Assembly: GCF_028368995.1 (NCBI RefSeq)
Contig: NZ_JAQNDL010000002.1
Coordinates: forward strand, 417,724-481,723
DNA from: Nannocystis bainbridge
Lineage (GTDB): Bacteria; Myxococcota_A; Polyangia; Nannocystales; Nannocystaceae
Direction: 5' to 3'
Length of the DNA: 64,000 bases
In this document: in pieces, positions 31,590-34,090 of the stretch
Numbering within the stretch: the first letter of the stretch is position 1
How the letters are laid out: the number at the start of each line of letters is the position of its first letter
Position numbers and translations under genes: made by a program
Notes under the pieces: model-generated
What the model was told of the DNA's origin: nothing
The model's input: only the letters and a program-made list of their open reading frames with translations
Databases searched by the model: none

Positions 31590-31700
31590 ACGGCCGGCCG
31601 CGACCTTGGCGAGCCGACGCAGCCCCCGCCCGTGCCGCGCCACGGCAAGGCCGAGCTCGGGCGCATCGAACCAGCCCGAGCGCAGCGCCCGCAATGCCTG
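31590..31700 (-). pseudogene. Fragment paralogous to the CPBP protease gene (43240..43989). Gene remnant
   Basis: ~60 nt at 31627-31690 are ~85% identical to 43735-43800. Translation SGWFDAPELGLAVARHGRGLRRLAKVAAG vs SGWFSAPELGLAVARHGPALRWLAKAAAV. No full gene present. Confidence 0.6.
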
Positions 31701-31999
31701 AGCCTGGCAAGCCGACGACGCTCGTGCACAGCCGCTGCCGCGCGGGGCTCCTGCACCAGAGCAGACTCGCCACGCGCGTGGATTCCTTTCGACCTAGAGG
31801 TCGAGAGCGCTCCACATATTTGCCGGCGGCTACTCCGCAGATCACTCTTATCAGAGCAGAAGAGTGGATTTCCGAAGGATCTACGCGGGCGCTTCGAATC
31901 CCGTCCGGAACGGAGCGTCCGTTCGCTGCTGCCCGTGGACCGCGCGCTCGCTGGCGCGGTAGGTTGGACCGGAGGACAGGCCTCGGGCCGGGAGCAGTC

Positions 32000-32680
32000 A
32001 TGTACGCATCGTTGAAGTCGGCTGACGGGAGATTCGTGACGAACGAAGGTAGGACCTGGTTCGTACAAAAGGACGAACGTCCGGCCGCCGAGATCGAGCA
32101 GGAGGTCGATTACTCGGCGTTGTTCGCACTGGTTCGTACGATGAATCCGTTGCGGATGTCGCGGCCGGAGAGCCGCCCTGGGGTCCAATACCTATTCGCG
32201 GAGCTGCCGCCCGATCCGGTACGCGAGGCGGTGGTCTCCGGCGGCGGGCACGTGATTCATGCGAGCGAGGTGGTGCCCTTCGACGGGCCCCTGCGCGCGC
32301 CCGCCGACCTCGCCGAACACTTCTTCGCCCGGATCGCCCGCAAGGTCGCGGCCGAGCGCGATCTGGGCTTCTCACGCGACGGCCTCGAGCAGCTCGAGCA
32401 GGCGCTGGCCGATGCCCAGGAGGCCGACGAGGCGACCTACTGGAAGGCCGTGTTCGACCTCGGCGCATATGCGGGCGAGACGCTGCGCGCGGCCGCCGGC
32501 GGGCGGTGGATCCGGCAGGACGCCGCCGGCGTGGTCCCGTTCGCGTTCGCATGCACGATCGGCGATGAACCGGCCGAACTCTACCTACTGGCCAAGGCGA
32601 TGAGGTTCATCGCCGAGGGCCCGGAGGACAGCCTGACTGGGTTCGTCGACCTGGCGGCGCGTACGAGGGCTGCGCGGTAG
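32000..32680 (+). CDS. Hypothetical protein
   Basis: SD GGGAGCAG before ATG (MYASLKSADGRFVTNEGRTWFVQKDERPAAEIEQEVDYSALFALVRT...). 226 aa. Confidence 0.55.
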   Translation: MYASLKSADGRFVTNEGRTWFVQKDERPAAEIEQEVDYSALFALVRTMNPLRMSRPESRPGVQYLFAELPPDPVREAVVSGGGHVIHASEVVPFDGPLRAPADLAEHFFARIARKVAAERDLGFSRDGLEQLEQALADAQEADEATYWKAVFDLGAYAGETLRAAAGGRWIRQDAAGVVPFAFACTIGDEPAELYLLAKAMRFIAEGPEDSLTGFVDLAARTRAAR

Positions 32681-33460
32681 AAGGAGCCGGCGCTCTCGGG
32701 CGGGGCGCGGGAGGGCCGCGGTCGGCGATGCTGCGGCCGACGCTCGTGACCGTCGTGACGAAGACCTCGGCGCCCTCGTGGTCGTGGCGATCATGCTCTG
32801 GCGGTCGCCGCGCTCGCTCGCACAGCCATGCGACCGCTCGACGTCCGGCTGCAGGAGCTGACGGCAGCGGTGCACGCCGACACGGCGAGCGACGTCTCCC
32901 AGGACCAGCGGCTCGATACGCACGAACGCCGCCTGGACGAGCACCAGCGGCAGCTCGCGGAGCACCATCGCATCCTCACCGGTCATCTCGAGGTCCTGTG
33001 AAACGAGGCGATCCAACCGTTGCAGTCGGCTACGTCAGGACGTCGACGACAGAACAGCGGCTGCGGACTGCGGCGCTCAGTTGCTGTCGTCGCTCCGCGG
33101 GTCGTCGCTCGGCCCTGCGGTGAACCCCGTCGCCAGCAGCAGCGCGGAGAGCTCGCCCCGAGCGTCGCGGGCCGCCGCCGCGCGCAGGAGGTCGCGCAGG
33201 CGACGGCTGCGCGGGTTGGGCGGGGTCTCCGGCGAGCCGAACAGCGCCTGCAGGTCGGCCTGCAGCAATCCGGTCTCATGCTCGCGGATCACCTCGGGCA
33301 GGGTCGGCCAGTACTCGCGCAGCCGCTCGTTGCGGGCGACGAGCCGGGTGGGCGGGCTCACGCGTCCGGGTGTAGCACCTGCGCCGGTCCACTCCCAGCC
33401 GGAATCGCAAGCGCGACCGGGCCGGCAAGCGCCATGAGCGCGTGTCGTCCCCCCAGCACC

Positions 33461-33835
33461 TCACGCGCCGAGCAGGAAGTGATACTCGCCGAGCACCTCC
33501 CAGGTGTCCGCGCCGTCCAGCTTGCGGACCCGTACGCCGGCCAACACCTGCGGCGGCATCATTCGCACGTTCACGCCCATGCGCTCGGACGTCGCGTCGA
33601 GGCTTTGCCAGTGCGTGGTGCAGCCGCAGATCGGGCAATGGTGGGTCTCGAGGGTTCGATCACCCTGCACGTAGGCGATCGTCGCGCCGGATACTCGCCG
33701 CACTTGCTCCGGACGATAATACGCCCACAGCCCACCCAGCCGGCGGCACAGCGAACAATTGCAGTCGGTCAAGATCTCGGGCGTATGGTCGATCTCCATC
33801 CGCACGGCGCCGCAATGGCAGGTGGCTTCGATCAT
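33461..33835 (-). CDS. GFA-family (glutathione-dependent formaldehyde-activating enzyme/CENP-V-like) Zn-binding protein
   Basis: CHCGAV...CNCSLCRR...CPICGCT cysteine pattern of the GFA fold. 124 aa. Confidence 0.8.
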   Translation of the reverse strand: MIEATCHCGAVRMEIDHTPEILTDCNCSLCRRLGGLWAYYRPEQVRRVSGATIAYVQGDRTLETHHCPICGCTTHWQSLDATSERMGVNVRMMPPQVLAGVRVRKLDGADTWEVLGEYHFLLGA

Positions 33836-33929
33836 GGTGGGGGGCTCCCTCTTTCGCGACGACCTCTACCACACGCCGTGTTCTGCGGCAGCGGCCCGAC
33901 GGCGGCATGGCGACCGGCGACTCTCAGCG

Positions 33930-34090
33930 GTACAGGCATGCCTCCGCGTCGCCGGCGACTACCACATCTTCGTGCCGACGCAGGGTAGGGGCGTGTGGGG
34001 GATCCCGAGCTGCAAGGGCTGCGTCGACACCTGCCCGACCGGGCCGGAGGACTATCCGTGCGGGACGGCGATCGAGCCTTGCGATCCGGC
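33930..34090 (+). pseudogene. Fragment paralogous to the lipoprotein gene 44630..45712 (its region ~45020..45170). Gene remnant
   Basis: DYHIFVPTQGRGVWGIPSCKGCVDTCPTGPEDYPCGTAIEPCDPAIA vs DYHILVPRQYGPPWGIPGCEADCVDTCPTGPEDYPCGAVLEPCDTVKG. Nucleotide identity is high over ~140 bp. No flanking remainder of the gene. Confidence 0.6.

Follow-up and report, generated by a model that had tools for sequence, protein, structure and literature searches.

The question raised by a 64,000-nucleotide stretch of the Nannocystis bainbridge genome (contig NZ_JAQNDL010000002.1, positions 417,724–481,723; hereafter the window; species description in PMC10435759) is why two short intergenic patches at 31.6 and 34.0 kb, here named A1 and B1, resemble the interiors of two intact neighbouring genes lying 11–12 kb further to the right, one encoding a CPBP (Rce1-like) intramembrane protease and the other a lipoprotein. 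The initial annotation of this DNA had described the patches as decayed fragments of an ancestral duplicate of the 43–46 kb segment that was later overwritten by other genes. The analysis presented here indicates that A1 and B1 are probably the non-functional remains of a second, originally contiguous copy of a divergently arranged CPBP-protease/lipoprotein module, but of another version of this module than the one that resides in the window today. The window has a G+C content of 70%, and genes were called on the basis of third-position GC and checked against Pfam and NCBIfam. The four features in question are as follows:

31595–31690, minus strand: relic A1, 96 bp, corresponding to CPBP residues 67–97
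33949–34092, plus strand: relic B1, about 143 bp, corresponding to lipoprotein residues 132–175 and carrying the type II block
43240–43989, minus strand: intact CPBP (Rce1-like) intramembrane protease gene, 249 aa; Pfam PF02517, E 1.2e-18; segment matching A1 at 43698–43793
44630–45712, plus strand: intact gene for a 360-aa lipoprotein; lipobox LAAC; block of type I; segment matching B1 at 45012–45161

A BLASTN comparison of the window with itself revealed that the two top off-diagonal matches are those between A1 and the CPBP gene (31595–31690 versus 43698–43793; 96 bp, 88.5% identity, E 2e-28, 124 bits) and between B1 and the lipoprotein gene (33949–34092 versus 45012–45161; 152 bp, 78.3% identity, E 3e-26, 117 bits), both in direct orientation. 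The matches noticed in the initial annotation are therefore confirmed, and its coordinates lay within about 10–35 bp of the true edges, although patch A is 96 bp long and not about 64 bp. In 20 dinucleotide-preserving shuffles of the window, the best off-diagonal score was 37.4–54.5 bits. Both patches align in frame with their parental proteins, A1 with residues 67–97 of the 249 residues of the CPBP protease (84% amino acid identity) and B1 with residues 132–175 of the 360 residues of the lipoprotein (70% amino acid identity). Chance similarity of GC-rich codons, an objection foreseen by the initial annotation, is thus excluded: scores of 124 and 117 bits stand against at most 54.5 bits in the shuffles, the matches are in-frame peptide matches, and the same patches match the orthologues of four other genomes with 81–93% identity. 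The order and orientation of A1 and B1 are the same as in the intact pair, while the start-to-start spacing is 2354 bp instead of 1314 bp, as had been estimated (2.4 against 1.3 kb). These similarities also account for two odd matches among the predicted open reading frames (ORFs), at 31461–31694 (minus strand) and 33759–34208 (plus strand), both of which are spurious.

To define the extent of the homology, a profile built from five orthologous CPBP–lipoprotein loci was searched against the window using nhmmer. Outside the intact pair, it detected only 31595–31691 (E 3.8e-15) and 33949–34091 (E 1.8e-37), followed by a next-best match with an E-value of 0.13; the homology therefore stops abruptly on all four sides. 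No further remnants of the CPBP or lipoprotein genes were found between or around the patches in the window, either by tblastn at E-values up to 1 or by nhmmer with the --max option. Neither A1 nor B1 retains a parental start or stop codon, both sides of each patch being cut. As read from the sequence, A1 and B1 are two islands bounded by breakpoints, and there is no uniformly decayed 2.5-kb copy. The term "decayed" used in the initial annotation is misleading in this respect, since the fragments have been truncated at breakpoints and not eroded.

Proteins of N. bainbridge that are 100% identical to the products of the window genes are P0129 (CPBP), P0001 (lipoprotein), and P0121 (the product of gene X, described below). 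The lipoprotein has no Pfam, NCBIfam, or PDB sequence match; some sources label its paralogues "VWFA domain-containing". An exchangeable block located at residues ~139–153 of the protein occurs in two types. The type I block, QYGPPWGIPGCE[A]DC, is found in N. punicea P0005 and in both intact copies of N. bainbridge, namely the resident gene and the second full-length copy P0002 (MDC0723205). The type II block, QG.GVWGIPSCKGC, is the one carried by B1, and type II alleles are widespread, being found in the second N. punicea copy (P0142, WAS96406), ILAH1, and N. radixulma. This subgroup has two full-length members each in N. punicea and N. bainbridge, and many more distant paralogues occur in the genus. 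The family is mosaic: the sliding-window DNA identity of the lipoprotein gene changes partner along its length, and protein segments of P0001, P0002, P0005, P0142, P0006, and P0004 recombine in blocks, with P0002, for example, sharing 39 of 40 positions with P0142 in one block and 46 of 49 with P0005 in the B block. Divergence at four-fold degenerate sites is raised in the lipoprotein gene to 19–29%, compared to 9–20% in the neighbouring genes.

Comparison of the patches with the available alleles showed that the resident genes are not their closest relatives. Over a 129-bp core, B1 is 93.0% identical to the allele of N. pusilla OV079 (locus L008), 86.8% to that of the other N. pusilla strain, 85.3% to a metagenomic allele, 81.4% to N. 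punicea, and 79.1% to the resident gene, and 21 informative sites group it with OV079 versus 3 with the resident gene. B1 is nearer to OV079 than the second N. pusilla strain is, the latter being only 89% identical to OV079. The 3-bp length difference in the B match represents an insertion private to the resident gene. Likewise, A1 is 91.7% identical to the N. punicea CPBP gene versus 88.5% to the resident one, and none of the three derived changes private to the resident CPBP gene is present in A1. Since B1 is nearer to the allele of another species and A1 lacks the changes of the resident CPBP gene, the relic was not copied from its present-day neighbour. The proposed origin from the present 43–46 kb segment is therefore not upheld, while the other part of that proposal stands: the patches are non-coding, collinear remnants of a CPBP–lipoprotein pair, and unrelated genes fill the space. 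The relic would derive either from an older state of the resident locus or from an imported allele; both origins explain the data almost equally well and are not separable. The 88% paralogue P0002, encoded in the same genome, was considered as a donor of B1 and rejected, because it has the type I block.

The substitutions that are private to the patches were also analysed. A1 has eight such changes, distributed 2/3/3 over the three codon positions, and B1 has six, five of which are non-synonymous, a neutral-looking pattern expected of unconstrained DNA. The pooled private divergence amounts to 14 of 225 sites (6.2%), while the per-lineage divergence at four-fold sites between the species is 4.5–7.5%. 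The proximity of these values suggests that the relic arose at about the time when the species of the bainbridge/punicea/pusilla complex split. The pairwise four-fold-site divergence was 8.9% for the CPBP gene, 11–15% for the kinase gene, and 13–20% for the gene encoding a 606-aa protein.

Both patches are located in intergenic spacers. A1 lies in a 417-bp spacer between the stop of an ACP-like gene (31582), which is 12 bp to its left, and the start of gene X (32000). B1 lies in a 336-bp spacer between the start of a GFA gene (33835) and the stop of a jacalin/MACPF-like gene (34172), which is 80 bp to its right. The genes around and between the relics are listed below:

30977–31582, plus strand: tandem ACP-like/DUF1493-like protein gene, recognised by frame plot; NCBIfam ACP matches, E 1e-6; low GC (0.59)
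31936–32680, plus strand: gene X, encoding 226 aa from a start at 32000 and preceded by a conserved leader of 64 bp; no family match; fills part of the space between the relics
33077–33361, minus strand: possible small ORF between the relics
33461–33835, minus strand: intact GFA-family gene, 124 aa, between the relics; Pfam PF04828, E 1.3e-10
34172–35761, minus strand: jacalin-domain gene; C-terminal Pfam Jacalin match, E 4.3e-13; low GC (0.63)

The DNA between the patches, 2.26 kb in length, thus comprises gene X, the possible small ORF, and the GFA gene. Gene X forms a self-contained unit of ~730 bp, whose orthologues, with 65–77% amino acid identity, occur in five entirely different neighbourhoods (L002–L006) in N. 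punicea, two N. pusilla strains, and two Logan contigs, one of which is short and carries the same gene as N. pusilla L004. In the window, the native last ~13 codons of gene X have been replaced near position 32665, and this truncation at a junction indicates that illegitimate joins do occur in the 31.6–34.1 kb stretch. The initial annotation had spoken of a MACPF islet; for the gene to the right of B1, the MACPF label rests on a Pfam match below the threshold (E 0.004, 17.7 bits versus a cut-off of 21.5), while the jacalin domain of this gene is solid. PDB sequence matches of its product were to jacalin only, and no relatives of the protein were found in a metagenome scan. Over 30.9–37 kb, the GC content falls to 0.59–0.68, compared to 0.70 overall.

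No inverted or direct repeats and no promoter or terminator consensus marking the patches were found. No Rfam family matched the 30900–37200 interval at E-values up to 0.1, no tRNA genes were found, and a search of a plasmid collection returned nothing relevant. A 30-bp sequence just to the right of A1 (31715–31744) shows 90% identity to the units of a 55-bp tandem repeat that adjoins the N. pusilla integrase gene (L007 18129–18567; L008 18358–18497). With an E-value of 5e-4 in a small database, this similarity is possibly due to chance and was set aside as too weak to use. The patches were also considered as copies of a dispersed repeat, such as a miniature inverted-repeat transposable element or an insertion sequence, and this was rejected, since there are only two copies with no terminal inverted repeats or target-site duplication, and the patches correspond in frame to portions of genes that other species have conserved. 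Duplication of an integrase attachment site was rejected as well: the patches derive from the interior of genes, no integrase lies closer than the one at 54104–55126, and no tRNA genes were found.

Comparison with related genomes revealed the plasticity of the region. The N. punicea locus L001 is syntenic with positions 43151–51150 of the window (91.4% identity) and contains the same CPBP–lipoprotein pair, but the synteny stops at 43151, 89 bp past the CPBP stop codon. In two N. pusilla strains and a metagenomic contig, synteny is limited to the DNA rightward of 44476–44495, about 150 bp upstream of the lipoprotein start, and no CPBP gene is present beside the lipoprotein gene. A third relic, at 52349–52477, is a chimeric junction joined at a TTGAC/TTGG microhomology. 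Its first part (52349–52395) is a copy of the 3' end of the kinase gene including the stop codon, with 85% identity to the resident sequence (51088–51134) and 96–98% to N. pusilla, and its second part (52393–52477) repeats the 3' portion of the integrase gene (53922–54006) with 88% identity. The following genes are found in this part of the window:

51193–51681, minus strand: tRNA_anti-like OB-fold gene, between the repeat copies
52542–53633, minus strand: HisKA/HATPase gene, between the repeat copies
54104–55126, minus strand: phage-type integrase gene

In addition, an intergenic remnant of an IS5-family transposase gene was identified at 15828–16063 (Pfam DUF772, E 3.6e-14), which lacks ~290 bp of its interior when compared with the N. 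pusilla copy (L007 2605–3136). These two further relics indicate that such scars are common in the window. Given that synteny breaks off, that alleles are mosaic, and that two more relics are present, the region is demonstrably plastic, and its description in the initial annotation as a recombination-active accessory zone is upheld.

The origin of A1 and B1 could be explained by the following scenario, which we favour. A second copy of the CPBP–lipoprotein module would have been made or acquired while the CPBP-adjacent lipoprotein gene still had the type II block, as the positional orthologues in N. pusilla do today. This copy may then have been cut in at least three places through illegitimate recombination. 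At the left cut, the 3' part of the CPBP gene would have been lost, leaving a remnant that now abuts the low-GC ACP-like gene. In the middle, 1.2 kb spanning the 5' end of the CPBP gene, the promoter region, and the 5' half of the lipoprotein gene would have been replaced by the 2.26 kb carrying gene X, the possible small ORF, and the GFA gene. At the right cut, the 3' half of the lipoprotein gene would have been lost, and its remnant now abuts the jacalin/MACPF-like gene. The remaining patches would be neutrally drifting spacer DNA. The resident lipoprotein gene would have switched to type I later, by the segmental recombination or gene conversion common in the family, which could explain why the relic is nearer to the alleles of other species than to its own neighbour. 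We infer that the two patches were once parts of a single piece and that the events took place in this order, with the switch proceeding from type II to type I.

A similar fate is known for pseudogene fragments left in bacterial accessory regions after duplication and deletion. Like such fragments, A1 and B1 are truncated, promoterless, collinear intergenic pieces with changes at all codon positions. Unlike them, they are only two very short patches with sharp edges, and B1 is nearer to the alleles of other species than to the resident parent, because the parental gene family undergoes segmental exchange.

Several observations weigh against this scenario. An intact second CPBP–lipoprotein pair at the syntenic site, for which the initial annotation had suggested looking in related genomes, was found in no genome, since a scan of the genome collection with the protein of the left-flank gene returned nothing; N. 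punicea does, however, encode a second lipoprotein of type II, P0142. Nor did metagenome scans return anything, whether the query was the jacalin/MACPF-like protein or aligned B-block peptides. The CPBP gene (90% cluster) is single-copy in every genome seen, and A1 is the sole evidence that it was ever duplicated. Moreover, three independent replacements are needed, after which longer and less clean patches would have been expected. The counts behind the neutrality and the dating are small (14 changes), and the species are nearly equidistant at the locus, so that the direction of the switch between types I and II is not fixed.

The similarity of B1 to N. pusilla makes it necessary to consider that an N. 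pusilla-like relative was the source of a CPBP–lipoprotein segment, acquired through horizontal transfer or recombination and perhaps accompanied by the low-GC genes, and that the resident locus was not duplicated within the genome. The 93% identity of B1 to OV079, against 79% to the resident gene and 89% between OV079 and the second N. pusilla strain, would be expected in this case; the lower GC content of the 30.9–37 kb region (0.59–0.68 versus 0.70), the likewise N. pusilla-like kinase 3' end at 52349–52395 (96–98% versus 85%), the integrase at 54104–55126, and the mosaicism of alleles across species are also consistent with it. However, both N. pusilla strains examined lack a CPBP gene beside the lipoprotein gene, and the closest match of A1 is in N. 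punicea. Type II alleles are so widespread that likeness to one strain names no donor, and no mobile-element ends or repeats flank the patches. A foreign origin is considered unlikely. Alternatively, a full second copy may never have existed, and the patches could be short insertions templated by the CPBP–lipoprotein locus in the course of break repair or template switching. Such insertions and complex junctions are known from fork stalling and template switching (FoSTeS), microhomology-mediated break-induced replication (MMBIR), and the filler DNA of non-homologous end joining. The patches resemble them in being short (96 and 143 bp) and razor-sharp at the edges, in corresponding to a locus ~12 kb away, and in being located exactly at the junctions of unrelated modules, and another chimeric junction, with TTGAC/TTGG microhomology, is present nearby at 52349–52477. 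On the other hand, the order, the orientation, and, roughly, the spacing of the source are kept, which fits one piece better; the collinear patches have diverged from the resident template, as an old contiguous copy would; a template with a type II block beside a CPBP gene would still be needed; and no microhomology is evident at the four edges of the patches. Templated insertion thus appears improbable.

It should also be asked whether the patches have retained a function, B1 as a silent donor cassette of the type II block, or both as antisense RNA, transcribed within the 3' regions of the ACP-like (plus strand) and jacalin (minus strand) transcripts and directed against the CPBP and lipoprotein mRNAs. 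Silent partial cassettes serve for gene conversion of surface-protein genes in Neisseria (pilS), Borrelia (vls), and Anaplasma (msp2). Like these cassettes, B1 lacks a promoter and reproduces only part of a lipoprotein gene, covering the exchangeable type I/type II block together with its conserved flanks, and it lies 11 kb upstream of a parent of the same orientation that belongs to a mosaic family. Unlike them, it is single, with one lipoprotein-derived cassette and no array in the 64-kb window; no evidence of donation was found, its five private amino acid changes being present in none of the 12 alleles inspected, and its private damage is apparently neutral. The CPBP fragment is out of place in such a system, since A1 originates from a membrane protease, to which the logic of sequence variation does not apply. 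Regarding the antisense variant, each patch directly follows the end of a gene that is read antisense to the corresponding parent gene, and perfect complementarity to the resident genes extends over stretches of 15 and 21 nt. However, this arrangement would arise by accident in about one case in four, the substitutions look neutral, and searches for Rfam families, promoters, and terminators gave no signal. A retained function is thus very improbable.

If the patches are the remains of a lost second copy, which we consider their probable origin, the relic may be regarded as a small molecular fossil: it preserves a type II block that has since been lost from both intact copies of the genome, and it would provide direct evidence of segmental allele turnover in the lipoprotein family. 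The patches also mark four junctions of illegitimate recombination. The repeat is real, and its biology is ordinary, a common type of genomic scar; it is mainly of use for annotation and for tracing how a hypervariable accessory zone of this very large myxobacterial genome has evolved.

Some additional features of the locus and its counterparts can be mentioned. At the point where synteny with N. pusilla ends, strain OV079 carries instead genes for an HNH protein, a methyltransferase, and IS21, IS66, and Mu-type transposases. In both N. pusilla loci, L007 (10904–12590 and 13653–16215) and L008 (11003–12393 and 13753–16424), the 606-aa gene and the large kinase gene each have an orthologue that is broken up into several called ORFs, which may reflect frameshifts or assembly errors. 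Directly to the left of the N. punicea synteny break, the window contains a gene of the SUKH/SMI1-KNR4 family, which is associated with immunity proteins (ORF 42434–43111, plus strand), and a 15/30-bp tandem repeat (42404–42508) is located near the 5' end of this gene.

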